From NCBI GenBank assembly GCA_040954595.2, contig CM082582.2:4696303-4760302 (forward strand): 64,000 bases of DNA, given 5' to 3'. The notes beneath the pieces were generated by a model. The model worked only from the letters and a program-made list of their open reading frames with translations. It had not been told where the DNA came from and searched no databases. Both the position numbers and the translations under genes were made by a program. Every line of letters begins with the position of its first letter. Position 1 is the first letter of the stretch. The stretch is from Balanoglossus misakiensis. Lineage: Eukaryota; Animalia; Hemichordata. Positions 1 to 26,629 of the stretch are shown piece after piece.

Positions 1-16
1 CCAACATAATGTCAAT

Positions 17-1318
17 ATGGACGGTAGGGCGGACGGCAAAGCGTTGAATCATGAGGAACTGGAAATGACTAACCAGTTTACAAGTAAGCAAGATGCAGAT
101 CACGATACGCATGACACCCGAAAGGAAGGCGAAACACGACTGATACACATGTTAGGACAAAATAATGAAAAGGCCACTGTCCATGAGAGGACAGACTCGC
201 CACGCACTCCTGCACCTAACACTGAAAATTCGCTGGCTAAGGAGTTGGCGTTAGTCAGCAAATTGGCACAGAATCTTCCCAAAGAGGACGCTGTACAGTT
301 GATGGAACTGTTTGAGAATCGGGACGAGAAAATAAATTCCATGGACAATATGGCGTTGACCATGTCGTTACAAGTTCAGAAAATCTTGCAACTAGTCAGT
401 AACATAATGGACGAACAAAACACACCGGAATCCAGGAAACGCAGGGATGATCTTATGGAACTCCGTCAAAAACTCACCAGAGAGCCCATGGATCAAGGTC
501 ATATAAACGCCTCATTTTCGAAACTTGGTGAATCATACCAAGACATATCGAAGGAAGCAAACAAGGTTCCCAGAGCATCTATGGACGAGGCAGTCAGTAA
601 TAAACTGATCGACTACTATAAACGTGTTACTAACGTGCTCAAGAAGCAATCAAACCCGGATACAATAAGTGAATCCAATATGTCCTCTTTGAGTAAAGAT
701 CAACAGGAACGCATGGCTAGAATTAAACAACATATGTCAGAAAGCCCAGACATATACCAATACATACAGTCACTAGAGGCGGCAGTGGATAGTAGTCTAC
801 TCCAAGGTATACGTGAAAAATCCCCGCGACCACACGGTAGTCTGTCGCGTCATGCTGCGCAACAAAATGCTACCTATAGAGACCGCGACGATGGGTATTC
901 GCCACATTATCACACGCAAAAAATCACGGGACCTAGTCAGGAGCCCTACCAACGGCGTCAACCAACGCATGAGTGTATGTGTGAGGATTGTCAGCCCATA
1001 CGTCACACCAAATCTCCCCACCTGCAGAACCGACGCCAAGGATCTCCGCAAGACCCCATAAAGACCCATCAATCTAAGCACAATTCTGAAGCTATGCAAC
1101 AGCGCAAAGATGCGACCCAGTGTGATCGACAGCAAGACTGTACTGCAAAATCGTGTCGCCAACCGGACTCCGAGGATAAAATCGACGCCAGTTTCAGTGG
1201 TCATTCGGAGCACCAACAGACATTCTGGAAATTGAGGAAGCCAATAGTATACGATAATGATTTTCCGGAAGGATTTTGTGACGACGGACCACCAATAGTC
1301 AAGAGAATCAAACATTAG
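17..1318 (+). CDS. Hypothetical viral protein, coiled-coil plus disordered tail (possibly the scaffold part of a protease-scaffold precursor); may be 5'-truncated
   Basis: 433-aa ORF whose frame is open back to the window start; sits directly upstream of the triplex-like and MCP-like genes; function is inference only. Confidence 0.6.
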   Translation: MDGRADGKALNHEELEMTNQFTSKQDADHDTHDTRKEGETRLIHMLGQNNEKATVHERTDSPRTPAPNTENSLAKELALVSKLAQNLPKEDAVQLMELFENRDEKINSMDNMALTMSLQVQKILQLVSNIMDEQNTPESRKRRDDLMELRQKLTREPMDQGHINASFSKLGESYQDISKEANKVPRASMDEAVSNKLIDYYKRVTNVLKKQSNPDTISESNMSSLSKDQQERMARIKQHMSESPDIYQYIQSLEAAVDSSLLQGIREKSPRPHGSLSRHAAQQNATYRDRDDGYSPHYHTQKITGPSQEPYQRRQPTHECMCEDCQPIRHTKSPHLQNRRQGSPQDPIKTHQSKHNSEAMQQRKDATQCDRQQDCTAKSCRQPDSEDKIDASFSGHSEHQQTFWKLRKPIVYDNDFPEGFCDDGPPIVKRIKH

Positions 1319-1352
1319 CGTGAGAGAATAATTTACAACACAGGAAGAAAGA

Positions 1353-2273
1353 ATGTCCATCAGAAACGCGCAAGTAAAAGCCCCTCCAGTTGAAGGCCCA
1401 GTGATTGCGCTTGAAGTAGACCGCACGTTCGTTTCACAAAACTTGGACGGTGCGAAGTTATCGGTCACTCAGGATGTGCTCTACCCGAGAGACGACAAGG
1501 TCACAATTGTACCGGGACAGGTACTGTTGGGACACAGGGATTTTGCTTCTAGAAAGTGGGGAGTTGTTCCTTCACCAGCTGGGCTCATGGCAAAGTCATT
1601 TGATATACATACTGGAGATATCGAAAAAAGCAGGCAGATGTGGGAGTTAGACCCACAGGCGTATAAGGTACTGGGTATAGCTTCGACCGAATCCACCGAT
1701 TGGGAAAAGGGTCAGCTAATGTCGATTGTGTCAAAGTCACCCAGTACGGGTTTTTTAAACACAGGAGGCAATTGGATAAGAGACGGACAACTTGTCTGTG
1801 TGCGTCTCCCAACCCACGAAGAAGCCAATCAACACTTGCATCGGTATGGTTCGATCAAATTTGCCACCTATCCCCGCGACGATAACGACGTTCATTCAAA
1901 TATATACGAGTTTATGGACTATCTAAGAATGGAAAAGGATATTGCTGTAGCAACAGGTCACCACAACAAAAGAGAATCGCTGAAAGCGCTCACCGAGATA
2001 CTATCGCGTTCTGGGGAATTCATTTCGAGTCATATAGTGCCAGAGCCAAGATCCCGAGCACAATTCGACAACTGGAAGCGTACGGGATATATTTTCAACA
2101 CTCCATTAACCCTATTCACTGATGAAGCGCACAGGATATCTTTGCAACATTTTCTCAACAATGTGGTCAAACTTGCCAACACAATTAGATCAAAGAACGA
2201 CCTGATAATCTTAGGACTCGCCAGGCAAGATATACACCCTTACGAATACGGGAGCATAGAACTCTACGTTTAA
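1353..2273 (+). CDS. Putative capsid triplex protein
   Basis: 306 aa, next to the MCP; C-terminus IILGLARQDIHPYEYGSIELYV resembles the terminal beta-strand pattern I recall for mirusvirus triplexes; AATAAA at 2353-2358. Confidence 0.55.
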   Translation: MSIRNAQVKAPPVEGPVIALEVDRTFVSQNLDGAKLSVTQDVLYPRDDKVTIVPGQVLLGHRDFASRKWGVVPSPAGLMAKSFDIHTGDIEKSRQMWELDPQAYKVLGIASTESTDWEKGQLMSIVSKSPSTGFLNTGGNWIRDGQLVCVRLPTHEEANQHLHRYGSIKFATYPRDDNDVHSNIYEFMDYLRMEKDIAVATGHHNKRESLKALTEILSRSGEFISSHIVPEPRSRAQFDNWKRTGYIFNTPLTLFTDEAHRISLQHFLNNVVKLANTIRSKNDLIILGLARQDIHPYEYGSIELYV

Positions 2274-2945
2274 TATCTGTACGCGGAACACGTGTAATGG
2301 CATAAGACAATTTACCGTGGATTGTAATTTTTATCTTTATATATACATATTAAATAAATGTTACAAACAAAGTAATATAAGTAGTGAAACTTGCATGTCT
2401 ACACACGAATAAATACACATAGACGATCATATGGGTTAAAATGAATTTATTTTTAACATGTTGTAAGAGAGTGTGCTGTATGTGATAAAAAATCACCTAC
2501 ACAGTTCTCATCTACATAACAATAAAACTCCTTCTGTGATTGGTTCACCGCCGACCAGTCTCAAGTCCAGTTGGGGTCGTTAAAATTGCGGCCTTTATGA
2601 CTTCAATGACTAACGAATGAAGTCAATATGACCGCCGTTTCACCCCCCCCCCCCCTCATATGTTACGGGGGAAATCATTACAACTGTACCATGGAATCCT
2701 CCTGTACATTACTTGTACCTTTCACCATGGACTATGCGTTGTGCTTCTTCATCATCTTCGTAGATGTACCGAATATAACAGTCCATGGTGTCAGACTTGT
2801 AGCCACGAATAATGATTACTATCCTTTAGATGGGATTCAGCTATGCGTCTTCTCTGTTACAGCATGTTTCGCCAAAAGTGGTTCGTCAGAGATATTATAT
2901 TAATAATGTGTTAGAATAGCGATACGTGTATAAAGGTATTTCAAA

Positions 2946-5900
2946 ATGCTGAATCCGTTCAGACGGGGTCAACCCAACATGAGCAGGCCTTTGATGACGT
3001 CTGATCTACTAAATTTTGACAATTTTTTTGCAGACGACGGGTCAAACCCGCCCTCTGGTCAGGGTCGATTCGGGGGAACATTCTCATCCAATCCAAACTA
3101 TATCGGACATCGAAACCAGGGTCACACTGCCACAGACACCGATTGGGTTGCCCCGAAAGATGTCTTATTGAGTCAAAGGATATTATACGACTCGATCTCG
3201 CCTGATGAAGGCGTTGTTAAAGTGGGTGGTGATAGGTTGGCTTGGTTTTGTCCCATCGCTATTTTCAATGGAAGACCCAATTTTGCAATACAGGAAATCA
3301 TCGCCCCGGCTTCAGTTGTAGATAAATGTACATCCGCGTCTACTCTGCCAACACTGGGCGTTGAAAAGCAGTCGAGACAGTATACCATGGATATGATGGG
3401 CGTTGCCATCAGTTTAGCTCCAGAGCTTATTCAAAGAGGGACTGTTAACCAGATAAGGAATGCGTACAAACTCAAGGTCAAACAGGTGGTCGACAGTATC
3501 GCAATGACACTACAGGCAGTAGTATACAGTAATGTATTCGGTGGTCCCACACTCGAATACATGGAGTTTCGCAGGATGGGCAACGAAAGAGATGTTTCTA
3601 GAGCTAACCTATTTTATGGTACATATCAGAAAAGAATCGACAATTTTCTACTATGGAACCTGGGGCGAACAAACAAGAAAGCTGTGTTAATTGACTTGGA
3701 TAACTGTTTGAATTACAGTTCGAACAACGACGGTGATGCCGACACAATAATATGTCACCCTGTCGTCGCAGGTGTCTTGAGGGAAACTGTCGCGCCTAAT
3801 CTAGGCACGCAAGAAACTCGAGAAACCTATTTTGTGAATACGTCTGATAATCACATTGTATATAATCACCATCTTCAACCAGACCCAAACCTCTCCCACC
3901 AAGTTCATGCTCCAAATTTAAGAACAATAGTTAATGCAAAAGTTAAGTACATTATTCCCTGTCCGGATGTACGAATAAACAATGTCAAGTCGAATCTCAG
4001 TGAACTCGAGGCCAACTTCAAATCGTTTAACGTTATAGGATATTGTCCATTACTGCAACAAATGGGTAGTCTACTGGACTTCAAACAAACCACATCTGTG
4101 GATTGGAATTCCATATACGTTACCGACTTTGAGAAACGATACGATTCGAGGGTTACCTTGGACGAGGTGATGGAACAGGGTGGTTATTTTGTACCAGAAA
4201 CATACAACGCGAGTTCTTATAACAATCTATTGAGAAGTGCAGACTTTATTGAATTGACGACCATAACACCAGCCGAGTATTATCGATCATGCACAATGCC
4301 TTTCACTGGAAAGGAGAAATCCTGCTTGTTAGATCCTAGTCGAAAAGTGTATTATGACCCGGACAGACAAACATTTCTACCCGCGTTCACTTATGGACAC
4401 AGCAACGTGAGCACCTGTCCCGTCGACAGGGGTGACATTGTCGCCGGTATGACGTTCATGTCCAGGACAATGGTTGGCCTCGGAGAGCATTGCGACGAGG
4501 AATTGTTATGCAACTATGTAAGAGACTGTCTGTCGCTGGAATGGTCTCAGGAGGATTTCGACACCCTTATGCTGTTTGATCGCACACCGTTTCACGAGGC
4601 AATGGGCGATGTGGCAGAAGTTGGCAATACCAGTGATGGGAATGGAAGTGGAGAAGGTTCAGGTAGCCAGGGGACATTGGCCCAAAGGGTTATCAGGGAC
4701 GTCACTTCTCATAGTGGCGCCACACATTTTACCAATTACGATCAATTGCTAATCGTCCGTCATATTTGTCAGCAACGCAGATGCATCGATCGAGAAAGAG
4801 AGGAAGGTGGTCGTGCAGGTGCTACCGCTATGAACGCATTAGACTGCGCAATTGTCAACATTACTATGATTATAGAATGGGTAGACTTACTCTATGACAA
4901 ATATAAAACAGTAACCAAATCCAGGCCAGATACTACACACAGTTGGTTGTTCACGCCATTGGGTCATGAGACTCTACAAAAAGTATTTCACGATGACCGC
5001 CTAGATGAAGCGGATGAGAGAGATTACACGCATATGTTACGCAACAAGGCTGCTCTGTACCACAATGTATTTCTGAGAGCATTTTCGCCGGTTGTATATG
5101 TTGCGGGAAATTCTTCTTTAGACGAAGCTATAGAGGCCGGCATCGTGAACGTTGTGGGGCTGGGTGACATTACACTGAACGAGGAGGTTTATCATTACAA
5201 TTGTAACTTTAGTACATATTCAGCCAGGCGGACATTCAATACTATAGCTGATTCGTCATTCATACGCCCCAAGCAAAGATTTGTTATCTCCGATTTGAGT
5301 CCATTGCACTCATACAACAATGACTCTCCTGTCGATGCGGAACACTTTCTGAACCATAACTATTCCTACAGGTTGTCATGGATCTGCAGTTCGTCATACA
5401 GTCTCATGATCAAGTGTTTTACCATGATTTTCATTAGCATGTTACAAAACCCAACCACTACTAGAGCGTTAGCAAAAGAAGGGATATATTTAAACACGGC
5501 GTTTCTTTTGTTCAGAAATGTGGTACAGCGGACATGTAGCATCGCCATGGCGCGATCTGGTAGAGAGAACAGGTTCTTGTTTTGTGGCAATAGCACTACA
5601 AATAGTTACCATAGTAATGCCACCAGTTATGTGACGAATTGTCGTTTCGAGACAAATATGGTGGACTTCGACCCGATCAATAACACCAGGGTACAGTTGC
5701 ACGTGGGAGGTCTGGGTTATAACAGGGGGATGGGTTCAAAAATTAGGGACCCGTTCACGGAGGGGACGTCCGATGGTAGGGGCGACTTTGTTGTTGTACC
5801 TATGTGTCCGATCGTAGATGTTGGGCTCTGGAATCACATTCAACCTATGAACGGGCGAGTTACGTTCGAAGATGGTAATTCAAACAAAAAGGCCACGAGA

Positions 5901-6413
5901 ATAGACACTGTCCAAGGTATTTACACCAATAATCCGTGGTCAACGGCTGGACTGTCAGAGGCTCAGATTATACATGGTAACATGCGACATCCCTTATGGG
6001 TTCACAATAGTAACAAGCACGGGACGTTCAAGTGTTTCTTACAGGCCAAGACACCGTCACCACAATACCAAGTTGGTATTGATGAATTTTATAGGCCCAT
6101 AGATTCCAATGGTCTACAGAGAGAATCAAACATAGCTGTACAGGGTAGGCAGTACCACAACAACATTGACTGTCCATACGCTTTCAAGACTCTTAACAGA
6201 GGGTTTTATGGAATGGACGAAAATAGTAGCAATCGCTTCCAAGACGCCCTCAACGTCTCCACCGTTCGTGATGACGAAGGTTTACATCTGATGGATCCAA
6301 TCACGATTCAACCGTCTGTCAAGAGAACGGACAAGTACTACGCAGAGACTGGAATCCGTAAGAAATTCAAGCCAGACGACGCGTCGCGTCAACACAGACT
6401 AATACCTATTTAG
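2946..6413 (+). CDS. Putative HK97-fold major capsid protein (mirusvirus/herpesvirus size class)
   Basis: 1155 aa; segment YTMDMMGVAISLAPEL...AYKLKVKQVVDSIAMTLQAVVYSNVF resembles the floor-domain spine helix of mirusvirus MCPs; too long for a double-jelly-roll MCP. Confidence 0.65.
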   Translation: MLNPFRRGQPNMSRPLMTSDLLNFDNFFADDGSNPPSGQGRFGGTFSSNPNYIGHRNQGHTATDTDWVAPKDVLLSQRILYDSISPDEGVVKVGGDRLAWFCPIAIFNGRPNFAIQEIIAPASVVDKCTSASTLPTLGVEKQSRQYTMDMMGVAISLAPELIQRGTVNQIRNAYKLKVKQVVDSIAMTLQAVVYSNVFGGPTLEYMEFRRMGNERDVSRANLFYGTYQKRIDNFLLWNLGRTNKKAVLIDLDNCLNYSSNNDGDADTIICHPVVAGVLRETVAPNLGTQETRETYFVNTSDNHIVYNHHLQPDPNLSHQVHAPNLRTIVNAKVKYIIPCPDVRINNVKSNLSELEANFKSFNVIGYCPLLQQMGSLLDFKQTTSVDWNSIYVTDFEKRYDSRVTLDEVMEQGGYFVPETYNASSYNNLLRSADFIELTTITPAEYYRSCTMPFTGKEKSCLLDPSRKVYYDPDRQTFLPAFTYGHSNVSTCPVDRGDIVAGMTFMSRTMVGLGEHCDEELLCNYVRDCLSLEWSQEDFDTLMLFDRTPFHEAMGDVAEVGNTSDGNGSGEGSGSQGTLAQRVIRDVTSHSGATHFTNYDQLLIVRHICQQRRCIDREREEGGRAGATAMNALDCAIVNITMIIEWVDLLYDKYKTVTKSRPDTTHSWLFTPLGHETLQKVFHDDRLDEADERDYTHMLRNKAALYHNVFLRAFSPVVYVAGNSSLDEAIEAGIVNVVGLGDITLNEEVYHYNCNFSTYSARRTFNTIADSSFIRPKQRFVISDLSPLHSYNNDSPVDAEHFLNHNYSYRLSWICSSSYSLMIKCFTMIFISMLQNPTTTRALAKEGIYLNTAFLLFRNVVQRTCSIAMARSGRENRFLFCGNSTTNSYHSNATSYVTNCRFETNMVDFDPINNTRVQLHVGGLGYNRGMGSKIRDPFTEGTSDGRGDFVVVPMCPIVDVGLWNHIQPMNGRVTFEDGNSNKKATRIDTVQGIYTNNPWSTAGLSEAQIIHGNMRHPLWVHNSNKHGTFKCFLQAKTPSPQYQVGIDEFYRPIDSNGLQRESNIAVQGRQYHNNIDCPYAFKTLNRGFYGMDENSSNRFQDALNVSTVRDDEGLHLMDPITIQPSVKRTDKYYAETGIRKKFKPDDASRQHRLIPI

Positions 6414-6702
6414 ATCGAAGGGATAACTGTCAAATCAGTTTCGTTTAATCCCACCCGCATAGATAGATAAAAGTTTTGTTAAGGCCAGAGAGAAAAAAAA
6501 ATCTTGTTCATCGGATTTTTTGGATGATGGTCCAGGAGCGGCGAGCGAATATTTTTTTTTTTTTTTTTTTTAGGCTCGTGCTCTTTCATTTTGTTACCTG
6601 TATGTGTAGGTCTACCTGTGCTGTACTATATGTAATGTATGACTTATACGGCCGAAATAAAAAGTTGAACCACCAGAAGTGACAACCACAATTTTTTCCG
6701 AG

Positions 6703-6744
6703 CATGGTGTATTATTTGCTGACCTTATATTGGCAAGCTTCACA
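6703..6744 (+). repeat. 42-bp direct repeat, copy 1 (copy 2 at 8043-8084)
   Basis: catggtgtattatttgctgacc(t/c)tatattggcaagcttcaca, 41/42 identical, 1340 bp apart. Confidence 0.95.
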
Positions 6745-6746
6745 AA

Positions 6747-6764
6747 TGGTGACCCCGACGTGAT
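6747..6764 (+). other. tRNA-Trp primer-binding site (18 nt)
   Basis: TGGTGACCCCGACGTGAT is the reverse complement of the 3' 18 nt of mature eukaryotic tRNA-Trp including CCA; it follows ...TTCACA plus AA. Confidence 0.85.
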
Positions 6765-7559
6765 GAATTCTCAAGGCATGAGTGTATTGTATTTACAATC
6801 GTGACGTTACTGGTTACCGACTCACCCTCTCCAGACAAGTGACGCACACGATCACGGCCAGTATGTATGGCAGGAAATCACACGCATTAATTCCCGAATA
6901 AAATTTGGGATAACGATTATTTAAAACGGAATGCTTGTTTTGAGAAAGCTGCCCGTCTCGCGCATAAAAGTTCAACATATTTGAAATATCTTAAATAAAA
7001 GTGAATAAGCTTTCAATATATATATAATGACAACAAAATGGTTTAACACGTAACAAAAATATAAATTCTGTACAAAAATTCATGAATTCTTGTCAATGAA
7101 TCTCAGATATAATAAATAATGTCTATACAGCGTGATTTTGATTGTCTTTTCCATGTAACGTAAATACCACAACGTAGTTCTTCTCCAGGCGATGGGAAAA
7201 TATAGTCTCTTGCCATGGACGAGCGAAATTTAATCTATCAGGGAAATATATCTGCTCACAAATGCGCGCCATATTGGGTGGCAAAGCGCGTCGTCGTCAT
7301 CAAAAGTGGAAATCAACACTAGAACGTGAACATCGCTTTTGATGTCCGTTTCTCGAGTCACAGTTTAAAGTCTGAATACTCCAACACGACATATTAAAGC
7401 TCTGTCTCTTCCACCTCCAGTTTTGATTGTATAAACATCGTCGCGTCCGATGGCGCGATCATTTGGTGCAGCGTTCGGTCGGGTGCGAAATTTTCCCTTC
7501 AAGACGGTGTGATTTTTTTCCTCATACTAATTCTGTGTAACTACGAGTCTTGGCTGTCA

Positions 7560-8045
7560 TTATGAATACGATTTCAGTTCGGCAAAAACTTCTGAAAAAT
7601 ACGTACTCTCCTTGTTTATCCGTAACATGTTGGCACTACAGTCATTTATAATTTTCAGGCTTCTGTCCCCGAATCTGTCTCTGTCGTCTTCAACTAGGAA
7701 CGGTTTTAGCGGATAACTGATCTCGTTGCCCACGTAACTATAGGATAAGTACAGACATGTGAGCACGACGGCTTGTAGCTCAGACTCGGAGGTGATTTTG
7801 TCGTCGACCAAGTCCCGACATAACATGTACACGAAGACAAGGTTTGCCGGGGTGATGAAGGCAATGTCCTGCCACCCTTGCAAGAGCAGGGACCTGTCCA
7901 CTGATCGCAGCCACATTATGGCATCGTTGCCTTCGAAGTCCCGCAAGCAGGAGCATCGCCGACTGAGGAAATTTCCCAGACACTTCAGCAGTTCTCCGGT
8001 GGACGCTTGGATGGTTTTCTTGGTGTTCGGCGTTTTCACCGCCAT
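7560..8045 (-). CDS. CDK5R1: CDK5 activator p35 family protein, activation domain only (p25-like)
   Basis: [43 protein letters not shown] and [21 protein letters not shown] match p35/p39; in-frame TAA three codons upstream of the ATG. Confidence 0.93.
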
Positions 8046-8084
8046 GGTGTATTATTTGCTGACCCTATATTGGCAAGCTTCACA
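8043..8084 (+). repeat. 42-bp direct repeat, copy 2; supplies the leader and ATG of the p25-like ORF
   Basis: Minus strand reads tgtgaagcttgccaatatagggtcagcaaataatacaccATG. Confidence 0.95.
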
Positions 8085-8464
8085 CGATGAACAATTTATT
8101 TTTCTTCCTGGCCTAATTGTCTCTGTACTGTCCGTGTTGCCAGCCAATCCACTCATTTATTCCGCTGCTTTGATATAATTACATGCCTATGCAAATAGGG
8201 AAAGATATACAAATCTACATGCCTTTTTTTTATACACCACATAATACGTAAGTGCATGTATTCCAACTGTAATACATTGGATAGACCGTGTGCGTGCGTG
8301 TCACTATCCTGCGTGTAAAATTGGCGAGTATAATTTTTAGAGACAACTCGGCTTTTGTGGCTCATAATTCTAATTATATCAAAGTACAACGCCAACAGTC
8401 CTATACATCTGGCGTTGACATAACCTATTAGCGTGTGCAGAGAACAGTATTGTTTAGTTGAACC

Positions 8465-8830
8465 ATGAGAATTTTACTCGCTACTTTTATGGGGGTTCTC
8501 TTTATATCATTTATTATCGGTCTTACAAACTTCGTCAAATCTTTACCGTCACATCATAATCCAAAGTCCCCGATAGCGCCACCCTTTTATTTACGGTGGT
8601 GTAAAGATTCCCTCTATACTACGCTGTCAGAGACGACCGAATGGGTACCCGATCAATTAACGAATCTGATGTACAACTCCACCTACACCCCAATGCCATT
8701 GAGGAAAGTGAGCAAAGAAACAGTAGGTTGGATGGCACAGAGGCTTTTAAACATCAAGTCTGCTATTACGCCCAACGCTCCAAAAGCCTTAGTAGGATAC
8801 ACGATAGATATTTCTATACAGGGTCCTTAG
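8465..8830 (+). CDS. Small viral protein with N-terminal signal/membrane anchor
   Basis: Hydrophobic N-terminus MRILLATFMGVLFISFIIGL; good Kozak context. Confidence 0.5.
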   Translation: MRILLATFMGVLFISFIIGLTNFVKSLPSHHNPKSPIAPPFYLRWCKDSLYTTLSETTEWVPDQLTNLMYNSTYTPMPLRKVSKETVGWMAQRLLNIKSAITPNAPKALVGYTIDISIQGP

Positions 8831-9342
8831 TAGTTGTGTTCGGACTAATGCTCGCTTCGCTGACCAACACTCTGTATCTCAACCATCTACATTCCAAGAT
8901 AGCAGACGAACAATGCGAGTTGCCATTCGGGGATGTCATTGATATCAACGAATATGGATACACTGTACACACATTCAATGGTCGTTTGTTGTTAAACAGA
9001 AAAAGTAGCGGGTCACAATTACCAGCAGGCCCTTGTACACACTTCAATTCGTCTGTACAAGAAGCTGTCCAATGTGAATCTGAGATAATGTTATACGATA
9101 TAAAAGGCGAACCATACTATGCTTTGCGCATGTTCAGAGATCAATCAAACCACACATTTTTAGTACAAGGGCCTTATAGTGGCAACGGCGACGAACACCA
9201 AGTCCACATCCGTACCGACCTTCAGTCTGGTAATGTCGTCGTTGGATATGGTCCAGTGCCGCCAAACAAAGTACCAGATGCAGAACTGTATGTAGACGGA
9301 TTTATTTATGCTGCTACCTTGGATAGAAGTAGTTTCAATTAG
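8641..9342 (+). CDS. Putative viral membrane protein (true 5' end uncertain; possible splice acceptor near 8821)
   Basis: 233-aa ORF with TM-like SLVVVFGLMLASL followed by a beta-rich domain; overlaps the previous ORF. Confidence 0.5.
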   Translation: MGTRSINESDVQLHLHPNAIEESEQRNSRLDGTEAFKHQVCYYAQRSKSLSRIHDRYFYTGSLVVVFGLMLASLTNTLYLNHLHSKIADEQCELPFGDVIDINEYGYTVHTFNGRLLLNRKSSGSQLPAGPCTHFNSSVQEAVQCESEIMLYDIKGEPYYALRMFRDQSNHTFLVQGPYSGNGDEHQVHIRTDLQSGNVVVGYGPVPPNKVPDAELYVDGFIYAATLDRSSFN

Positions 9343-9435
9343 AACGAGACTGGGACACTGTTATCGAACATAACGGCGCCCCTATTTAATCCCACCTGTC
9401 AAACTAAGTATACCAGAACGAACGACATACTTGGC

Positions 9436-10014
9436 ATGACAGAACAAACGTCAATGTCGTCTCAATTAGACCCCGAAATGTGTATTTGTCGCATATGCCA
9501 AGAAGGTGAATCGTGTGCTGAAGGCGGCATGCTCTTGATTGCACCTTGTTTATGCAAAGGTAGTCTGAAGTTTGTCCACCGTAGGTGCATCCAAACCTGG
9601 ATAAGAAGCGCTCGTATCAACCGATGTGAAATTTGTAATGCACGCTTCAAAATCATGGTTGAGACTAGACCAATATCAGAATGGACATTGCCGAAGATGA
9701 CCAGAACGATATGGATAAATATTGCACTTGTGTTGTCGTGTACTGTGTGTATATTAGGCATATCATTACACATGCACCTTTTGGTGGAATCCCTATTTCT
9801 AAAGATGGATGCACTGAATACATTTTTCGTGGTGGCTTGCGTGTTGCTGGCACTTATGGCGCTGACTGCATTTGTCCTCCTAGAGACTTTTAGGTGCGTG
9901 GACGTGTATGTGTGGTTAAGAGAGAACAACAGAGAGATAGGTGTTAAGGACTATTGCCCATCTTCTCAACAAATACATGGTGGTGATGAAGACATACGCA
10001 CGAATACGGTGTAG
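9436..10014 (+). CDS. MARCH-type (RING-CH/RINGv) membrane E3 ubiquitin ligase
   Basis: CRIC...LIAPCLCKGSLKFVHRRCIQTWI...CEIC C4HC3 motif followed by two hydrophobic helices. Confidence 0.9.
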   Translation: MTEQTSMSSQLDPEMCICRICQEGESCAEGGMLLIAPCLCKGSLKFVHRRCIQTWIRSARINRCEICNARFKIMVETRPISEWTLPKMTRTIWINIALVLSCTVCILGISLHMHLLVESLFLKMDALNTFFVVACVLLALMALTAFVLLETFRCVDVYVWLRENNREIGVKDYCPSSQQIHGGDEDIRTNTV

Positions 10015-10244
10015 ACACCATGTAATTGTTCCATACTCTATTTTTGTTTTGTTCATTACGATGACGACATTGTTGTCCAATCAGTATCCTCCCTTCTCAC
10101 CCCCCATGATGAGTACGGCGATTTTGACAATGAACGAGTCACATCGTTCGTCCATGTAATGAGCCGTTGGTGACATTCACCATATATAAGCAAGAGCGAT
10201 TTCAGTCACTCTCGCCAATCACAGTTTGCCTATATCAAACAACA

Positions 10245-11513
10245 ATGTCCGAACTTATCGACGTGGTTTATGGAGTTGACGGGAAAAACATCGGAGAGGT
10301 ATTCCACATTCCGTACTTCTGGTTACCCAAGTTTATACCGGCATGGGATCGTTTGCTAGAACGAACAGGAGGTGGTCAAGAGGATGGCGATCGCCGGCGC
10401 CTCATTCTGAGATACCCCTTTCCAGACAAGGTGACGTCGAAAGATGTGGATGAAATTGTCAAGTTTGTCAGCGATTGTGTACATAACTATTCAACATTTT
10501 GTCGACCATCCGATGTTCCTTGGTCGAGGTTGACAGCTGTGCTCAGGCTGGTGGACCATTACAAGGTCACTCCATACCTCGACGCTTTGGTATCTTTTAT
10601 ACATAAAACCTCCATGAATGCGTACACATCCCAAACCACCCTACACATGTTAGAAGCCTATCATGACCTTGTGCATGACTTGACGGAAGATGTACTACCT
10701 GCAGCAATCGTCAGAGTGGAGATCGCCACTCAATGCGTGTTAAATGCCAATTCGTGGAATTACATTTGTTCATGTCAAAAATGTCCCGAACACCCGCGAC
10801 GCGACGAAGTCGCTTTGTTATTTTGTGGACACGAGAAACAGATTCACGCCTACTGGGAAAAGATGATGTCGTGCACTCTGACAAAGAATCTACGAAAGAG
10901 TAAATGGACCCTTGCCACTTTCGCGTGTATGGTCTCTGATGGTTGCCATGGAATAGCTACGCAATTACCGCAAAGTCCATCTTATTCTACTAATTTTCGT
11001 CTGCTCTTGCATTTGTGGTTGGCGAAAGGAGGTGAAGATGTACTTGCTGAACACGTTGCCCTTCTATCGTGCCTGTGTAGACAGGATGATCTTATGAGGC
11101 GTGCAGTCATTTTACAGGGCATGTTCAAGTACTCCGGAATGACCCAGATTGCCATCAGAGATTCTCTGAAACCTATAACATCACGGAGACGTACCATACA
11201 ACAGGTATGGGCGAGCGCCGCCGATGAAACATGCTATAATTGTTTGAATACACCGCAAGCGTCAAAATGGATTCATTGGAAAACATTTCCACGCGTGGCG
11301 TGTGATGTATGCGCAGAAGAGATGTGCCGGAAATGTTACGGTACGTGCGCATTGTGTGAACGAACTTTGTGTTTCGGATGCGCTACGTTTCTTACCAATG
11401 ATAGAAGAATTGAATGGCTGATGACTAATGTGAGTAGGCGAGCAATACACGGTCATGGAGTATGTGTAGATTGTAGAGGCTTTCCGGGGAAGTTGGTACC
11501 CAACAAAAACTAA
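10245..11513 (+). CDS. BTB-like N-terminus plus Cys-rich C-terminus protein, paralogue A
   Basis: Likely ATG 10245 in the 448-aa ORF; VLRLVDHYKVTPYL resembles the BTB C-terminal helix; many CxxC pairs; same layout as 25192-26541. Confidence 0.6.
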   Translation: MSELIDVVYGVDGKNIGEVFHIPYFWLPKFIPAWDRLLERTGGGQEDGDRRRLILRYPFPDKVTSKDVDEIVKFVSDCVHNYSTFCRPSDVPWSRLTAVLRLVDHYKVTPYLDALVSFIHKTSMNAYTSQTTLHMLEAYHDLVHDLTEDVLPAAIVRVEIATQCVLNANSWNYICSCQKCPEHPRRDEVALLFCGHEKQIHAYWEKMMSCTLTKNLRKSKWTLATFACMVSDGCHGIATQLPQSPSYSTNFRLLLHLWLAKGGEDVLAEHVALLSCLCRQDDLMRRAVILQGMFKYSGMTQIAIRDSLKPITSRRRTIQQVWASAADETCYNCLNTPQASKWIHWKTFPRVACDVCAEEMCRKCYGTCALCERTLCFGCATFLTNDRRIEWLMTNVSRRAIHGHGVCVDCRGFPGKLVPNKN

Positions 11514-11881
11514 CAAGACTGTCAGGAATTGTACATGGCACGCAGTAAATGAAATATTCGCGATAGAAAGAACAATAGCAATAAGAAGAAGAATTACAAC
11601 AAAGTGTCGTGTCCCTAAAATAACGGAACTGTTCAACATTGATGAAGATATGAGGTCGTTACCGCAACTTAAAGATGGCAGAACTATAACAATTGCCATA
11701 ATAGTTCTTTTTTTTTATTTCTTGGGTGTGTCATAACATAGGTTCTACAAAATATACGGACTCTCCTTTCAATACATGCATCGTCCAATCAGGTAAATAA
11801 ACAAACAACCCATAAATGTATGGATGTCTGCGATACTGTGTACATAATTTAACATAAATAAATAAATACATATCCGTATAA

Positions 11882-14800
11882 ATGCCCACTTGTCTGTGTC
11901 CATCTTCGTATTTATATTGCAATTTTATCACGGGTCAGAGCCTTATAACGTTAAACCTGGTCATGAATGTAGGAAGGCGGCGTGTTTACCTGTTAAAACT
12001 AGAAGTCAAAGGGAGAGGAGTCAACGCATCCGACCTCTGTACCATCTTCGGCAAACTTCCCAATGGGCGTAGTATCGCGTTGGACATACTCGACCCAGTA
12101 TATAGGATTTATTTGAATCCCATCAACGAGGTTAGGGACGAGGAAGAAGTGTGCGCCCTCATTCATCAGTATACCAGCACGTTTTCCAATAACTTCAGCG
12201 TTGGTAAAACGTCAAAGGTAATCGGCAATGGTTACGCGGGGGATTCTCGACTGCCATTTTGGTACGTCGAGTCGTCGGAAAATGCGGTTGTTAAACAGGT
12301 GCAAAAAAATCTACCACGCTCCATTTTCAATTTTTTTATGGACGGCTGTGGAAAGGCCTATTTGGACGTAGCGGCCAATATGAACATCGGGGGTGTTGGT
12401 TGGCACTGGATTAAGTCGTCAAGATACGTAACGGGATGCAAATGCCATTCGTGGTATGGCAAAGAACATGATCATGCCACTGTGAGTGATACCCACTCCA
12501 TTGAGCCCCAACGAGAAGGCGAAAGTAGTCCACCACCACCCATTAACATTCTTCAACTGAAAGTTCATTGCTATCCAGACGGTGTAATCGCATTTATTAC
12601 CTGTTCGTTGTTACGATGGGCAAAAGATTTGACTTGTCTGTTTAATAATACATTCCGTAATTGTACCGTTGTGAAGTTTAGAACCACGATGTATGGTGGT
12701 GATATCTCAAATGTAGTAAATTGCAGGGATGAAGGTAATGTGTTACGCGCATTCACCAAAATCATCACTACCTGTGACTATGACTTTTTATGTGGATATT
12801 TTTTGGAAAAGGAACAGTTAAGAGTGTTAAAGGAGAGAAGTTGTCTTCACGGGCTCAACTTGATAAACCCTTTATTAATCAGGGATATTCGCCACACGCC
12901 TTTCATCAACAGGTGGGATAATGACCCACGCGGTATTGGCTTGATCGACATATGTACTGACAAACACGCGGATGGTCCGGACGCCTACAAATACATCAAA
13001 GACACTGTATTTAACAAAGGCTTCCTGAACACATACTTATCAACTTGCGAAGCGGCTACTATATTCTGTAGCCGACTAACTCACAAGAAGTCAAATGTAG
13101 ATATTATACAGGTACCATACATGGATTTTTTTGAGTCAGCTATGACTCGTAAGGCTAAACAACTTGGGTACGTCTTTGCATGCAGGGAAATCGGAGGAAG
13201 CAATGCGACGACGAGTCATTCTGAATATGAGATTGAAGCAGATCGAGGTCAAGGTTGTCAAGGCGGTTTGTTTCTCACGCCGGTTCAAGGGTTACACGTG
13301 GGCAATGCAGAATTGAGAGATTTTAAAAGCATGTACGGTTCCATAATAGTTGCATTTAACATCGACATCACCACTAGTTTGCAAGAATCACGCGCGGGTT
13401 TATTAAATGATGTAATTGAGATACCAGGTGGCTACAACTTTGTTAGCCCAAATGTTCGGCAGGGGTTACTACCGTCTATAGTTTCAAATCTTGTCGCGCA
13501 ACGGGAACACTTCCAGAAAATTGCCCAGAGCAACAACGAAAACGGGAGTTGGTACGAAATGCAACAAATGGCACGGAAACAATTGATTGTGGGAGCTTAC
13601 GGAGTCAATTTACGTCAGAGTATATTCACAAGCCCGTGTGTGGCTAAGGCCATTACATCCACTGGTAGATTCCTCTTTGAACGGATGAGAGTAACAGCCG
13701 CGTCATTCACCCACCCACATTTATTGACGACACCCAGTGTCCTATTTGGAAATGCAGATTCTCTGATGACCAGTTTCCTGCCAGCACGTGAATTGTCTAA
13801 CGTCGAATGGACCGAAGTTTTCATGGATATTGGACAGTGTTTCCACGACGACATTCGTAAAGTAGTTCAAACCATGGGCGCGAATATAGATGCGCGTTTA
13901 TTGCGGTTTGAGTCGAAAGGGCATGCAAAAATAGTAATGTGTACGAGTCGCAAACAACAGTATGTGATGTGCATTAGGTCAACTTCCAAAAAAGGATGTT
14001 GTTTAGTTGTCAAAGGGTTTGTATCGAACTCTACAAACTGCCATCCCTTGGTGAGAAACGTGGAAAGATGTATGCTGTCGCTCCTGTTTGAAGGTCATGT
14101 ATTGCTTAGGTCTGTAGAATCTGGGCAACTGTCAACACTTCACCCAAGTGAATTGTCCACACGCTCGCAACTGATATATGAAGCGTACGTAGCATCATCT
14201 GGGGTGTGGGTGAAGGTTGGAGATGCTATAAACCAAGATACTGGTGTTAAGAACTCCTTTCGTTTGCGAGATAATTTAGGCAGAGAATTGTGCGAACGCC
14301 TTTTTGACGAGGACGGCATTCCGATACTCACCACTGACAGACTCAGAGAAATAAGGTCTGAAGTGGAGACGGTTGTGTTGTACACGTTAAACAGAGTCAT
14401 AATGTTGCAAGAAGACACGCACCTGTTGATAAAACATTTGCCACCGAATGCTAACCCTGGTGCAAGGTCGACGTTGGAAAAACAATACATGCAATTTCAC
14501 GGGAGATTGCCTTGTGATATATTATATGTGAATACCAAAGAAGATGGACCAATGCACCCTCTTTTGGCTGTCTTCCAACAGAAAACACTAGAGACAGATG
14601 ACACAATTGCATCGATAAAAAAGACCTTTATTGAGGGGGGTGACGAAGGTGGTCCGTATTCCATTATGAATGTTATGAGGCCCAACGTCAAGACATTACA
14701 CGGAGTATTGTGCATGGAAACAGAATCAACTGTGCAAAATCAGTTAAGAGTACAAAGACAGTTTCGGAAACGATTCGATTCTGTCCTCGCTATGTCCTCT

Positions 14801-15166
14801 AAGAAAGTCGAACACCCCGTGTGCAATAATGAAGAGGAATATGTGATGACAAAATTGTTGAATTTTACCAACTGTCCAGATTGTAAAGTTATCACTGTAG
14901 ATCGAGCTAATCGCGACTACAACTACACCGACATGTTCGGAACTGATGCGATAATCCGGAAGCATAATTTGGTTTTATTCAATGTATGCAAACAAAGTTC
15001 GCGTGTGTATTTCATATCCAATTGTAAGGATGTCCAGTGTGTAGGCGTATACAAATTTGCCACCTTGGTGAATCAATTGAAAATACTAACTGCACTTAAA
15101 AACAAGGAAGCAATGGTAAACAAAGTGTCAACTGTTTTGACTGAACGTCTCACGAAATCACAATGA
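11882..15166 (+). CDS. polB: Family B DNA polymerase, delta-like, with divergent catalytic and exonuclease motifs (alternative ATG 11963)
   Basis: Motif A RDFKSMYGSIIVAFNIDITT, motif B QMARKQLIVGAYG, motif C LFGNADSLM, VKGF, C-terminal Cys cluster CPDC...CKDVQC; AATAAA 15258-15263. Confidence 0.88.
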   Translation: MPTCLCPSSYLYCNFITGQSLITLNLVMNVGRRRVYLLKLEVKGRGVNASDLCTIFGKLPNGRSIALDILDPVYRIYLNPINEVRDEEEVCALIHQYTSTFSNNFSVGKTSKVIGNGYAGDSRLPFWYVESSENAVVKQVQKNLPRSIFNFFMDGCGKAYLDVAANMNIGGVGWHWIKSSRYVTGCKCHSWYGKEHDHATVSDTHSIEPQREGESSPPPPINILQLKVHCYPDGVIAFITCSLLRWAKDLTCLFNNTFRNCTVVKFRTTMYGGDISNVVNCRDEGNVLRAFTKIITTCDYDFLCGYFLEKEQLRVLKERSCLHGLNLINPLLIRDIRHTPFINRWDNDPRGIGLIDICTDKHADGPDAYKYIKDTVFNKGFLNTYLSTCEAATIFCSRLTHKKSNVDIIQVPYMDFFESAMTRKAKQLGYVFACREIGGSNATTSHSEYEIEADRGQGCQGGLFLTPVQGLHVGNAELRDFKSMYGSIIVAFNIDITTSLQESRAGLLNDVIEIPGGYNFVSPNVRQGLLPSIVSNLVAQREHFQKIAQSNNENGSWYEMQQMARKQLIVGAYGVNLRQSIFTSPCVAKAITSTGRFLFERMRVTAASFTHPHLLTTPSVLFGNADSLMTSFLPARELSNVEWTEVFMDIGQCFHDDIRKVVQTMGANIDARLLRFESKGHAKIVMCTSRKQQYVMCIRSTSKKGCCLVVKGFVSNSTNCHPLVRNVERCMLSLLFEGHVLLRSVESGQLSTLHPSELSTRSQLIYEAYVASSGVWVKVGDAINQDTGVKNSFRLRDNLGRELCERLFDEDGIPILTTDRLREIRSEVETVVLYTLNRVIMLQEDTHLLIKHLPPNANPGARSTLEKQYMQFHGRLPCDILYVNTKEDGPMHPLLAVFQQKTLETDDTIASIKKTFIEGGDEGGPYSIMNVMRPNVKTLHGVLCMETESTVQNQLRVQRQFRKRFDSVLAMSSKKVEHPVCNNEEEYVMTKLLNFTNCPDCKVITVDRANRDYNYTDMFGTDAIIRKHNLVLFNVCKQSSRVYFISNCKDVQCVGVYKFATLVNQLKILTALKNKEAMVNKVSTVLTERLTKSQ

Positions 15167-15673
15167 GTGTCATACAATGGATGAGAAGGGTCGTGATAAT
15201 ACTACTAATAATAATATATATATGCAGTCGCTTTAATTGGTATGTTGGTTTTCGTATAATAAAGTGTATTGCAAATAGAACAGTCCAGAATAGTCTTCTG
15301 CGAGTGTAAATTAGCATACACATAATACCATATTAGCTGTCTAATGGCGTGGTTTCATTGTCAGAACAAAGAATATACAATAAACAATATATCCCTAGAA
15401 ACATCGTATTTTTAACTCGCATTTAATATCAAGTAACATTTTCAACAGATAATGTGTACATTGTGTTGTGTATTTCAAATGTTTTGTTTTATTTCGGGAG
15501 GTGTCGATGTTTAGAGTGTTCCTACAGAGAAACACTTGCATATAAAAATAGAGACTCAATATACTACATACAAAACACCACAGCCTATTTGTTATCCTAT
15601 ATCGTCTTCTTCGGTTGACTTTTGACGTAGACAAATCTGCGATATGTTTTTTTTTCCATACTCGCCCCTCTTA

Positions 15674-18600
15674 TCACTTGACTGTTATCTGGTTTAGATT
15701 TTGGTCAAAGTTGTGACTCAACATAGATTTGACATATGGAACGAGAGTGGTCAAATTTCTTTTGCTTTTGGTGACAACGATGTACTTAGCACTCCCTTTA
15801 GTGAAGTCTATCAGATGCTCATTCGTTGACACAAAACAGAGCGGGATCATTGCATCGTGCCGGTCTACAAATTTTACATTTCGAGTTTTACCCAGTAAAA
15901 GTATCAATCTGAACATAGTGGGTGTGGATGTGTTAGGGTCATGCGGAATCACAACTGGATAAAACGTTGCGACTTTAGTAGTCGCATGCCCCCTACACAT
16001 TGCAGCCACTCGACTGAATTTGTTTAGTTCGCTGTCTCGGTGTCCGTTGTCATCGCGGTAGCACATAAACTGCCTCGCCTCTTCTAACATGACCGAGAAT
16101 GATGGTTGTGGGTCGAAAAAGTCTGTCATGATGTTCTTGAATAAACTGTCTGTGTAAGAAGGGAGTCGTCTGTAAGCGGACGACACAAACGAGACGAAAG
16201 GACGTCCGTTTATCGCTAAGTCTACATAGTTATCCCTACATGGCGCGTCGATCGTAACCCCGTTGCTGCGTAGCCGATGCGCTTCTTTCAATGCGTCCCT
16301 TTGTGTCTGTAAATACCGCACTATATCCTGGCTCTCCCTTAACTGGCGAGATAAATCGCGCACTGTAGCCTCGTGTTTATCGCAGCCGTCATGCGCCTTC
16401 TTTAGTCTGTCAATTTCAGCAGCTCTCTCGGCAGACAACTGTCGAATCGCTTTATTTTCCTTTCTCAGTGAGTTTACCAATGATTCCAAATCATGTTCGG
16501 ATGAAACTTCCAAACATACTGTCTGCTCTATATTGGAGGTTTGGGATCCGGAAGGATCAATCCTACTCGCTTGACTGTCAATCGCACGAACACCCAGTAT
16601 TCCTTTGGCATTTTCTAGTTCTCGTAGGCTTTTGTCACGGGTTTCAATAATCTTTTGTTGTTCTCTGATCTCGTTTTCAAAATGTCTCCTTAATTCGGCG
16701 ATCTGAGATGTATGACTTTTTTCCATCACTTTAACTTTATTTTCTAGTAGCCGTTTATCGCTTGCAATTTCCTGCATGCGCCTGTCCCGTGCGATATAAT
16801 ATTCCGGGGACCCTGCCTGAGATTGACTATCCGACAAGTCACTATCTTGACCCTGCCCAATCCGGCTTTCGTCTCTAAAGGCCCGTGTATTTAAACTGTC
16901 CCTTTGTTCAGCTTGGATAAAGGAAGTTTCCAGCGAGTGTAATTTCGTTCGAAATTCACTATTTTCATCATTCAGGTCATTCGCCTTTCGTTTCCAGTCA
17001 TTAAGATCGCCGATCGCATCGTCTAGCCTTAACTGAATTTCATTTAATTTTTGTTCAAATTCCCTTTGCTGCATAATTTTGTCTTCATTATTTCGTGCGA
17101 CTAGTTCGACTTGCTCAAGCAGCTTGTTGCGCAAGGCTTCGTTCTCCGATACGAGGCCAGCGTTCTCTTTTTGTTGTAACTCGTTTGACTTGACCGTGGA
17201 TGTTATTTCAGTATTCTTGTCGCCAAGTTCTCGAGATATTTGTATATTTTCCTGACGGAGATTACGAAATCGACTATTTGTATCATCAAACTGACGTCTT
17301 AGTGACTCCAAGTCCATACGGAGCTGTCGATTGTTTGTCTCCGTCTGTCGATGTTGTTTGCTAAGTGCGTCTACATGTTCGTTTGCTACCACGACTTTGT
17401 CTTCCAGTTGGTCACGATCACGCTGGTACATATCACGCTCGATTCGCAGTTGGGCTATCTGTTTGTACGTGATGTCTGCTGTACTCTCCGCCTTCGCTTT
17501 CATATCCTGATTGTCTGACTTCAAGGTCTCAATTTCCTCCCTCAAATCGTCAACTTCTGCATTTGCTTCATCTAGTTGTTGTTTTAAGGCATTTCTGGTG
17601 TCCACAGACTGCCGAACTTTCATTTCTAAAGTATCAATCTCTCTCCTGGTTTTGGACTCTTTCTCTTTAAACTCTCTCAAACTTTTGTTGTCACTTAATG
17701 ATTGTGAATTCAGTTCCTGTAACTTCTCTCGCTGTCGTTGATTATTCTGTTCTGATACGGCCTTTTCGTGAACGAATCGCTCAATTTTCTTGTTCAAGTA
17801 GTCGTTTTCTTCTCGTATTGCGTTTTCCTGTTCGGTTCTTTTTGAGATTTCAGCGCGCATTTGATTATACTCCATTACCTTTTCATGTAGCTCAGCCTTT
17901 AAACGCTTTGCTTCACCCATGTAACGATTAGTCTCTCCATCAATCGACCCTGACTGTTTCCCTCTACCATTCGATTGCAGTTGTTCATTCTCGACCGATA
18001 GCTGGTAAATTTTCGCCTGAGCGTTTTTGTTACTGACAAAGACCTCTGTCCGTAATTTACTACAGTCGATATTCAACCGGGTAACCTGGGCTTGTAACTT
18101 CTCTTCCGCTTCTTTTTGTTTGGAATTTGTTTCATTAGCATGTTGTAGACTGAGGCGAACATCCTCTAACTCGGTCTCAAATTTACGAATGTCTGACTGT
18201 CGTTCTTCTAATAAATTTTCTCTGATTTCCAATTTATGCTCTAAAGAGTCAACGACCGATCGCGTGTCCGTTAACTCCGTTTGTAACCTCTCATTGTCTT
18301 GTTTGAGGTTGGAACGTGTAGTATCATGTTGGACCTTTTGCGCATTAAGATCCCCTTGTAATTGGTTCTTTTCAGAGACCAATGCGGACAACTTAGTTTC
18401 TAGGCGCCTAATTTGGTGATTCAATTGTTCATTTGCGGCTTGTTCCTTGTGTAGAAGCTCCTTGGTAAATGCATTCTCACTAGACACACGCTTTACGTGT
18501 TGAGAAGTGTCTGTGAGATCACTGTCGATGGTATTCATTTTGGACGTGGCCGTCGCAAGTTGATCCTTCAGCGCATCAATCTCCTTCAACGCATCTGAAA

Positions 18601-22414: not shown

Positions 22415-22415
22415 T

Positions 22416-23687
22416 ATGTGGACGAGGAGGCGGGCGAAATGGCGAGAGTTGATGGAAGAGAAATATCGAGTAAGGTGCGCGCGTCTGACTAGCCGAATCG
22501 GTATTACCTCCAGAACTGCTACGCACTATAACTTTCCCGCGGTAACTCGTCGCACTTCGAGATTAACACCCGTTCAAGATGCATATGTACAGACCAGGGA
22601 TGTAGAAGTGACGCCGGCCTTACCTCCCCTGGGAACAGATGTTGGCGTATCAGCAGGGCACACCATTACGGACGGTTTGATACGAGACTCCACCCCACAA
22701 ACCCATACACAATCGGACAGGCGATTACAACAAGCATCACCTGTTTCTACCACTAGGGTGCAAGACAGGTGTTCGCACTTGACCAGTACACCAACTTCAG
22801 AAACTAATTCGATTACGATACCGGAGAGCAATGATGGGATACATGTCGTTTATTCACAATTTGCCAATGCACAGGTACCCGACCAGGCCGAGAGAATTAA
22901 CAAAACTGCGCTTGGTGTTATGGATAGTTCAATACACACCCCAAATCAACAATCAGTCAGAACATGGACGAGGCATCCGCCAACAAACCAGACAGATCGT
23001 TCCATTGCATCGTCAACGTCACCAGTAGACAATCATACAATAAATGAAGGGAGTCTCCCGCGGACGCCACCCAGACATAAGAATTCGGGTAAATCAAAAC
23101 AAAAGACCAAAATCGGAATTGTTGGTAAAAAAAGAAATAATAAGAAAATAATATATGATAATCACGGCAACCAATATTTGCTATTGCAAGTCAGTGGGGT
23201 TGCCGACGCCTGTTTTTATCGATGCTGCGTTATTGCATCTGATACAACACTCCTACAAAAGTACCTATCCGGTCATATCCAACCTCATCATTTAGAAGAT
23301 ACGGTGGAGACTGGTGTGCCGAACCTAAGAATAAAAATGGCCAATCACATGGACGGTTGGCCCAGCGATCGAATTTTGCCAGAATTCGGAGTCGACATTT
23401 TGCGAGAGGGCGGGTTTCGTTCACTCGCTGACAGGTCCGAAAGTCTCAGAGGGACGTATCCACACTGCGCTTCTACCATCGAGATCATGTGCGCCAGTGA
23501 AGTGTTAAATAGACCTATTCGGTTGTTCCAGAAGTCACTTAACGATGAAGATGCTGTGGTTGAATGTCTGAATACCAGCAGCCGCCTTCCTAATGAGAGT
23601 GGTTGTGCCACTCCAATAAATATCCTGTACCGTTACTTTGGACCTGATGATCCAGGCAATCATTTCGACTTACTAATCAAGCAATAA
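22416..23687 (+). CDS. OTU-family cysteine protease (deubiquitinase) with a long disordered N-terminus
   Basis: VSGVADACFYRC (Cys motif), ASTIEIMCASEVLNRPIRLF and GNHFDLL (His motif); AATAAA overlaps the stop at 23683-23688. Confidence 0.75.
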   Translation: MWTRRRAKWRELMEEKYRVRCARLTSRIGITSRTATHYNFPAVTRRTSRLTPVQDAYVQTRDVEVTPALPPLGTDVGVSAGHTITDGLIRDSTPQTHTQSDRRLQQASPVSTTRVQDRCSHLTSTPTSETNSITIPESNDGIHVVYSQFANAQVPDQAERINKTALGVMDSSIHTPNQQSVRTWTRHPPTNQTDRSIASSTSPVDNHTINEGSLPRTPPRHKNSGKSKQKTKIGIVGKKRNNKKIIYDNHGNQYLLLQVSGVADACFYRCCVIASDTTLLQKYLSGHIQPHHLEDTVETGVPNLRIKMANHMDGWPSDRILPEFGVDILREGGFRSLADRSESLRGTYPHCASTIEIMCASEVLNRPIRLFQKSLNDEDAVVECLNTSSRLPNESGCATPINILYRYFGPDDPGNHFDLLIKQ

Positions 23688-26541: not shown

Positions 26542-26629
26542 AAAGATGACACATGTATCGAGGGTAAACCCACAGACTGGAATGTCTCACCTGCGTCCCA
26601 TACGCATTTTTGTCGTATGTTTTGTAAGA

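Follow-up and report, generated by a model that had tools for sequence, protein, structure and literature searches.

Gammaherpesviruses express viral cyclins from genes that are old, diverged and conserved. DNA transposons have been named among the means by which large DNA viruses might acquire host genes, LINE-1 being the route that has been shown experimentally (PMC9578709), and host mobile DNA in viral genomes has been proposed as a vehicle of such captures (PMC4735498; PMC9578709). In populations of baculoviruses, host insertions did not persist over 10 cycles (PMC4735498). Pack-TIRs are recognized by 100-5,000 bp of host DNA within one TIR element and by at least 90% parental identity (Tan et al., 2021, PMC8277862), and the amphioxus Zator-1 possesses 33-bp TIRs and TAA/TTA duplications (PMC12905397). 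[quoted passage not shown] Here we describe such a locus in a window (the whole stretch of 64,000 nucleotides that was analysed) of the acorn worm Balanoglossus misakiensis. Its ORF 7560-8045 is a fragment of the host gene for the CDK5 activator p35, carried by a host TIR transposon within a likely herpes-like virus, most likely as a decaying hitch-hiker and not as a selected gene.

The viral part of the window contains long intronless ORFs, including those for a family B polymerase, a RING-variant protein and the small chain of ribonucleotide reductase. Its main features are as follows:

1..34475, no strand: likely herpes-like viral region; its left end lies beyond the window and its right junction with host DNA lies near 34475
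2946..6413, plus strand: major capsid protein (1,155 aa) with a predicted herpesvirus-type fold, left neighbour of the transposon
11882..15166, plus strand: viral DNA polymerase of family B, divergent (Pfam E=3.5e-20)

The capsid protein has 14 sequence relatives, all 10 of those looked up being unnamed, and no sequence match was returned for it by Pfam, PHROGs or PDB; its Atlas matches are phage-capsid clusters (weak, with low recognition), and ORF 1353-2273 gave no Atlas match. When its low-confidence structural model (pLDDT 44) was compared with a viral structure library, the best fold match was the capsid of Lake sturgeon herpesvirus (E=2.5e-13), and the eight matches at E<=0.001 comprised six herpesvirus-named and two unnamed proteins. 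The PDB fold matches listed for this model are all herpesvirus capsids, human and animal. The region thus appears to encode a large major capsid protein with the herpes-type HK97 fold expected of Herpesvirales, as predicted from a model of low confidence, together with a family B DNA polymerase whose PDB matches include pol delta and HSV UL30. The polymerase matched no phage record, and one unnamed relative of it was found. Terminase ATPase, portal and triplex proteins were not named among the 22 of 42 ORFs scanned in Pfam or the 12 searched in PHROGs, the virus exceeding the window. Neither the capsid protein nor the p35 ORF has a relative among IMG/VR contigs. A metagenome scan with a single protein yielded 1 locus from 26 candidates, a related viral contig (L001) with a 51% identical capsid protein and a conserved order of the three genes up to the capsid gene; in the 15.9 kb of this one distant relative, no p35 match was found, and different genes lie behind the capsid gene.

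This divergent virus possibly represents an undescribed lineage of invertebrate herpesviruses, arguably as interesting as the p35 insert itself. A search of the literature on hemichordate viruses, made mostly among papers outside subscription, did not find a herpes-like lineage described, and hemichordate names and CDK5 are absent from the main text of a survey of endogenous viral elements (10.1101/2025.04.19.649669), whose supplements may list this virus. The small chain of ribonucleotide reductase is intact (27119-28138, minus strand; Pfam E=1.6e-97). The RING-variant protein (9436-10014, plus strand), which we take to be MARCH/K3-K5-like, has a hydrophobic C-terminal half and is probably another regulator that the virus derived from a host. 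Two plus-strand viral ORFs (10245-11513 and 25192-26541) are alike in build, with Cys-rich C-termini, and are possible paralogues; the latter has a weak FYVE_2 match (E=0.007). A coiled-coil viral protein of 2,246 aa (15674-22414, minus strand) contains 78-nt repeats at 19795-20028 and is partly conserved in L001, and a basic viral ORF (30091-31305, plus strand) contains 96-nt repeats at 30772-31251. Short, AT-flanked motifs containing CCACC recur in the viral intergenic DNA (6444, 8579, 9385, and 28349), and both MITEs of the region lie at most 40 bp downstream of such a motif. On the host side, the viral insertion is adjoined by tandem repeats of about 9 kb (about 35400-56700; two fuller copies and a partial third) that carry macrodomain, RING and Deltex C-terminal exons and presumably represent DTX3L/PARP9-like genes; fragmented remains of a LINE-like endonuclease/reverse transcriptase follow at 56978-58998 (plus strand).

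Behind the capsid gene lies a host TIR element with cargo, a Pack-TIR-like insertion. This inverted-repeat transposon around ORF 7560-8045, the source of its ATG, had been missed by the first-pass annotation. The element, its cargo, and a second element of the same region are composed as follows:

6480..6482, plus strand: left target-site duplication TAA
6483..8113, no strand: non-autonomous TIR DNA transposon, Pack-TIR-like, 1,631 bp with GGCC...GGCC ends, carrying the p35 piece
6483..6513, plus strand: left terminal inverted repeat, 84% to the right one over 32 columns
6703..6744, minus strand: second copy of the 42-bp repeat, downstream of the captured piece, 41/42 identical to the first
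6745..6756, no strand: filler of 12 nt separating the 42-bp repeat from the host-derived piece
6757..8042, minus strand: captured host p35 DNA (483 nt coding plus 803 nt 3' flank/UTR), delimited with a host contig of run X3
7560..8045, minus strand: ORF of 161 aa in which the p35 activation domain of the host follows, in frame, an ATG from the transposon
8043..8084, minus strand: 42-bp element-internal repeat, copy upstream of the ORF, with an in-frame TAA and ending in ATG
8085..8113, minus strand: right terminal inverted repeat, pairing with the left one
8114..8116, plus strand: right target-site duplication TAA
28372..29185, no strand: second host MITE, cargo-free, 814 bp, TIRs 31/32 identical, TTA duplication

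The 3-bp TAA duplication and the short TIRs of 6483-8113 are those of Zator or PIF/Harbinger elements, the latter also making a TAA/TTA target duplication; no transposase was found among the 22 ORFs of the window scanned in Pfam. The arms of the transposon are high-copy sequences (contig depth 3,900-40,000), and two contigs from run X3 possess the same left transposon end, preceded by TAA, in unrelated flanks. Between both arms of this one element lie 1,286 bp of non-TE DNA, within the range of 100-5,000 bp, and its parental host copy is at least 90% identical (over 6757-8042, the two differ by 25 substitutions plus 44 gap letters). Both copies of the 42-bp repeat bracket the p35 cargo, and the last three bases of the repeat are ATG. 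A DNA-level template switch during gap repair or replication probably put the host p35 DNA into the element, and would at the same time have duplicated the 42 bp and added the 12-nt filler. The element would have entered the virus either before or after the p35 capture, and the virus would then have multiplied to several near-identical copies, with both MITEs carried along.

The region is present in three public runs (X1, X2, and X3), all of them from one sample. Run X3 is small and marked 'DNA?'; it covers the host p35 gene, leaves the virus almost uncovered, and contains host-type letters only, with the caveat that contigs drop rare variants. A host p35 contig of 2,725 nt from this run aligns to 6757-8042 and departs from the window at 8042 (the ATG) and at 6757, continuing on both sides with flanks that are unlike the transposon at either end. 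Inspected by eye, its sequence beyond 8042 corresponds to the host codons that come before the core in Ptychodera flava, and past the 3' end of the captured piece it extends 715 nt further. Since its alignment stops at 8042, the ATG of ORF 7560-8045 is not host-derived. The captured piece carries no poly(A) at its end and is diverged from the host gene by about 2%; the ORF is a very recent host capture and no old viral gene.

The encoded protein is most similar to the p35 proteins of other acorn worms, with identities of 97% for P. flava, 92% for Glandiceps talaboti and 86% for Saccoglossus kowalevskii, the remaining 117 proteins among the matches listed being at most 75% identical. It is the equivalent of residues 142-301 of P. 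flava p35, with coinciding C-terminal ends and identical residues at 155 of 160 positions (five differences) in a gap-free alignment. In a tree of 19 rows, hand-picked from named matches to span phyla, it is the sister of P. flava p35 (support 96/89); the phylogenetic comparison with host p35 that the first-pass annotation had proposed thus places it beside an acorn-worm protein. Its match to the Pfam family CDK5_activator (E=3.4e-87) covers profile positions 181-333 of 336, and in its match to human p25 chains in PDB (E=2e-62), residues 9-160 correspond to 42-193 of 1UNG_D, while the first position of the crystallised core (1H4L_D) corresponds to residue 15. The ORF hence contains the complete CDK5 activation core without p10, just as had been annotated. 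The label "p25-like" given to it holds with respect to the absent p10 and the core that is present, but the protein is shorter, its start lying some 33 residues into the p25 chain of 208 aa.

Other statements of the first-pass annotation on the architecture of the gene are borne out. The ORF is located in viral DNA, between the herpes-like capsid gene and other viral ORFs; the frame upstream of its ATG reads ...K-stop-Y-T-M, the stop being a TAA three codons before the start; and no p10 exon precedes it, as the first 141 residues of P. flava p35 found no match in the 64-kb window (best tblastn E=3.3). The ATG sits exactly where the alignment to the host gene breaks off and is in frame; its context has A at -3 and G at +4, and the host stop codon is kept. 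A TATAAA motif is present upstream on the coding strand at 8234; from the nearest TATA-like box to the ORF there are three upstream ATGs, and one of them opens an in-frame uORF of 34 codons. A plus-strand ORF that overlaps the p35 ORF (7825-8178) spans host, transposon, and viral DNA and was taken as a chance ORF.

The capture step could also have been mediated by RNA: a LINE would have inserted a 5'-truncated p35 cDNA into the MITE, the 42-bp repeat would then represent the target-site duplication, and the outcome, a passenger, would be unchanged. We regard this as rather improbable. The direct repeat flanks the insert exactly, and the insert is 5'-truncated and free of an intron relative to the host contig, but the absence of an intron carries no weight either way. 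Target-site duplications of LINEs are typically shorter than 42 bp, which makes the repeat long for such an origin, and the 3' end of the insert is devoid of poly(A) while the host contig extends 715 nt beyond it. These features count against the cDNA route, although LINE-1 capture is a shown route into poxviruses (PMC9578709).

To assess whether all viral copies carry the insert, we compared contig depths, which are a rough guide only and give no copy number, within the one sample. Long viral contigs have depths of 130-190 (X1) and 370-445 (X2), and the p35 insert has depths of 164-187 (X1) and 411 (X2), which is the viral level; no contig joints that skip the p35-bearing element were seen. 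Between the window and long viral contigs, 3 letters of 6,511 and 9 of 10,806 differ, and the data suggest that the virus is present as several near-identical copies. Because of its viral depth and the lack of joints skipping it, the insert is apparently shared by every copy of the virus in this sample, a point in favour of the first-pass annotation. Near 34475, long contigs of X1 pass from depths of 111-153 on the viral side to 24-27 on the host side, and one contig at the viral level continues there for 2.9 kb in sequence that is absent from the window. The depth drop and the continuing contig indicate that the copy in the window joins host DNA near 34475, inside ORF 34047-34508, while other copies continue; beyond this point, other copies or a circular form may go on.

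That host p35 and repeats were mis-joined into a viral contig during assembly is highly improbable. Short-read contigs do break at both arms, and no listed piece bridges the whole element. However, the target-site duplications match, joints skipping the element were not observed, and three contig records of X1 connect its parts: record 1 links the capsid gene to the left TIR, record 3 the 42-bp repeat to the insert, and record 6 the right TIR to the next viral genes. Moreover, letters of the copy type run at a depth of about 142 in X1, beside a depth of 59.6 for those of the host type.

Presence in all copies does not in itself argue for a function. The cargo-free MITE (28372-29185) has a contig depth of more than 100,000 in X1, and no empty-site joint was seen for it; since it is equally fixed, fixation of the p35 insert needs no benefit. 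The fixation is noteworthy beside the transient insertions described for baculoviruses (PMC4735498), yet an integrated virus that derives from one founder needs no selection to show it.

We then compared the captured piece with its parent. Of the 25 differences to the host contig, 23 are listed; 8 of these fall in the coding part (483 nt) and 15 in the non-coding part (803 nt), so that both have a similar substitution density. Four of the coding differences are silent and four change a residue. At three of these four residues, the host contig agrees with all three acorn-worm proteins, and these three amino-acid changes therefore arose on the branch of the copy. They are a conservative Arg/Lys change at residue 122, Val at residue 105, where 228 of 240 homologues possess Met, and Gly at residue 126, where all 240 possess Trp (the 240 being the best matches listed from 453 and 1,197). 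The copy thus does not keep the invariant core residues of a p25-type activator (Gly126, Val105). Around residue 126 in X1, letters of the host type account for only 59.6 of a depth of 201.9, so that those of the copy type run at viral depth. Literature on the structural role of the invariant Trp was searched for and none was found; its role accordingly rests on conservation. As judged from the sequence, loss of this Trp may weaken or abolish CDK5 activation, and the protein, if made, would probably be impaired.

The composition of the ORF (GC3 of 0.63) deviates from that of 17 other ORFs of the viral region (0.40-0.54), and the ORF is shared neither with L001 (15.9 kb) nor with IMG/VR contigs, so that neither the viral composition nor the presence in related viruses of an established viral gene was found. 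An open frame is expected to persist after 5-10 random substitutions with a probability of 0.62-0.79; it survives, in our reading, because too few mutations have occurred so far to close it. The coding part is free of indels relative to P. flava (160 vs 160 residues), the listed indels being in the non-coding part; the chance of such an indel-free coding part is 0.06-0.24 for 3-6 events. The dN/dS comparison with the host gene that had been proposed for this ORF gave an ambiguous result: the pairwise pN/pS of 0.29-0.44 is below 1, as selection on the copy would have it, but the host branch contributes synonymous changes, and a neutral copy compared with a conserved parent can also give such values. 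The claim of a constitutive activator evolved by the virus, analogous to gammaherpesvirus cyclins, is not upheld by a gene that is about 2% from its host parent, has a host-like GC3 of 0.63, lies in a host transposon that supplied its start, carries substitutions of a Trp that is invariant and of a Met that is nearly so, and is not matched in the 15.9 kb of L001.

Several observations stand against a mere passenger: the neat junction, the in-frame ATG in a strong context just before the core, the kept stop codon, the lack of coding indels, the pN/pS below 1, the insert seemingly in all copies, and the TATAAA at 8234. It is possible, though doubtful, that a working, nascent viral CDK5 regulator is present. 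Somewhat more doubtful still is the fuller scenario of a viral gene caught at birth, in which the transposon removed the p10 half, gave the start codon, and delivered the core to an active herpes-like virus of acorn worms, the gene now being expressed and spread to all copies; if true, this would be the first CDK5 regulator of a virus, acting either as activator or as decoy.

In its specific form as an activator, such a gene would be driven by a viral or transposon promoter, and its stable, soluble, p10-less product would activate CDK5, favour the virus, and so be kept. This is unlikely. The in-frame ATG in strong context lies at the domain boundary, stops and indels are lacking, pN/pS is below 1, the insert is at virus depth, and loss of p10 from the mammalian protein leads to a more stable, cytoplasmic activator (PMC5170856). 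Against this stand the changes of the invariant Trp and the near-invariant Met, the equal fixation of a cargo-free MITE, the lack of a match in the 15.9 kb of L001 and of a relative in IMG/VR, and the three upstream ATGs that follow the TATA-like box, one with its in-frame uORF of 34 codons.

By analogy with the inhibitory fragments CIP and P5, the protein might instead be made, dock onto CDK5 and fail to activate it, thereby acting as a dominant-negative binder. We consider this quite improbable. According to the alignment and to what we take to be the limits of P5 on p35, the changed Trp (residue 126) is located in the part equivalent to P5. A replacement of Trp by Gly in a conserved helix may, however, equally unfold the domain. 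In favour of such a binder, the truncated p35 fragments CIP and P5 inhibit CDK5/p25, and the region of P5 reportedly includes residues binding to the activation loop (PMC5170856).

Even as a decaying passenger, the p35 insert offers a clean snapshot of the DNA-transposon route into a herpes-like lineage, as the locus keeps every scar of delivery by a DNA transposon: the TIRs, the target duplication, the parent at about 98%, and the junction-made start codon. It likely shows one route by which such viruses pick up host genes. If the ORF proves to be expressed and active, it would represent a viral CDK5 regulator, of which the literature search and the IMG/VR scan found none; viral homologues of a CDK5 activator or regulator were absent from the literature as judged largely by titles and the starts of abstracts.

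The encoded protein resembles p25 and the activation domain of p35 (PDB 1UNG and 1H4L) in its cyclin-like core and in the absence of p10. It differs in that the truncation is at the level of the gene and about 33 residues further in, and in that the invariant Trp is replaced; the likeness is drawn from sequence. With the viral cyclins of gammaherpesviruses, it shares the presence of a host CDK activator in herpes-type DNA, but the p35 ORF is only about 2% from the host gene, sits in a transposon, and has no viral orthologue that we found.

The carrier virus is comparable to Teratorn and integrated alloherpesviruses (PMC10175614) in its herpes-type capsid, its integration, and its apparently several near-identical copies. 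It differs in its hemichordate host, in the unnamed relatives of its capsid protein and polymerase, and in that no transposase was found in the 22 Pfam-scanned ORFs. As with host transposons in baculovirus (PMC4735498) and the LINE-1 captures of poxvirus (PMC9578709), host mobile DNA has entered a viral genome. In contrast to the transient insertions into baculovirus (PMC4735498), a DNA transposon with coding cargo seems to be fixed in the copies of one sample, and whereas the poxvirus captures are RNA-mediated (PMC9578709), a DNA transposon was involved here. The copy of tesDw flanked by Zator-1 in Branchiostoma belcheri (PMC12905397) is likewise a recent gene copy in an invertebrate deuterostome, with 33-bp TIRs, TAA/TTA duplications, and missense changes at conserved residues. 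In that case, however, a whole gene lies between two full Zator-1 elements on host chromosomes (PMC12905397), whereas half a gene is carried by one small element in a virus here. Animal Pack-TIRs (PMC8277862) are alike in that host DNA lies between the arms, and blunt or filler junctions as well as chimeric ORFs occur among them; unlike these, the element 6483-8113 sits in viral DNA, with which it seems to have been multiplied, and its cargo is flanked by a 42-bp internal duplication that supplies the start codon.
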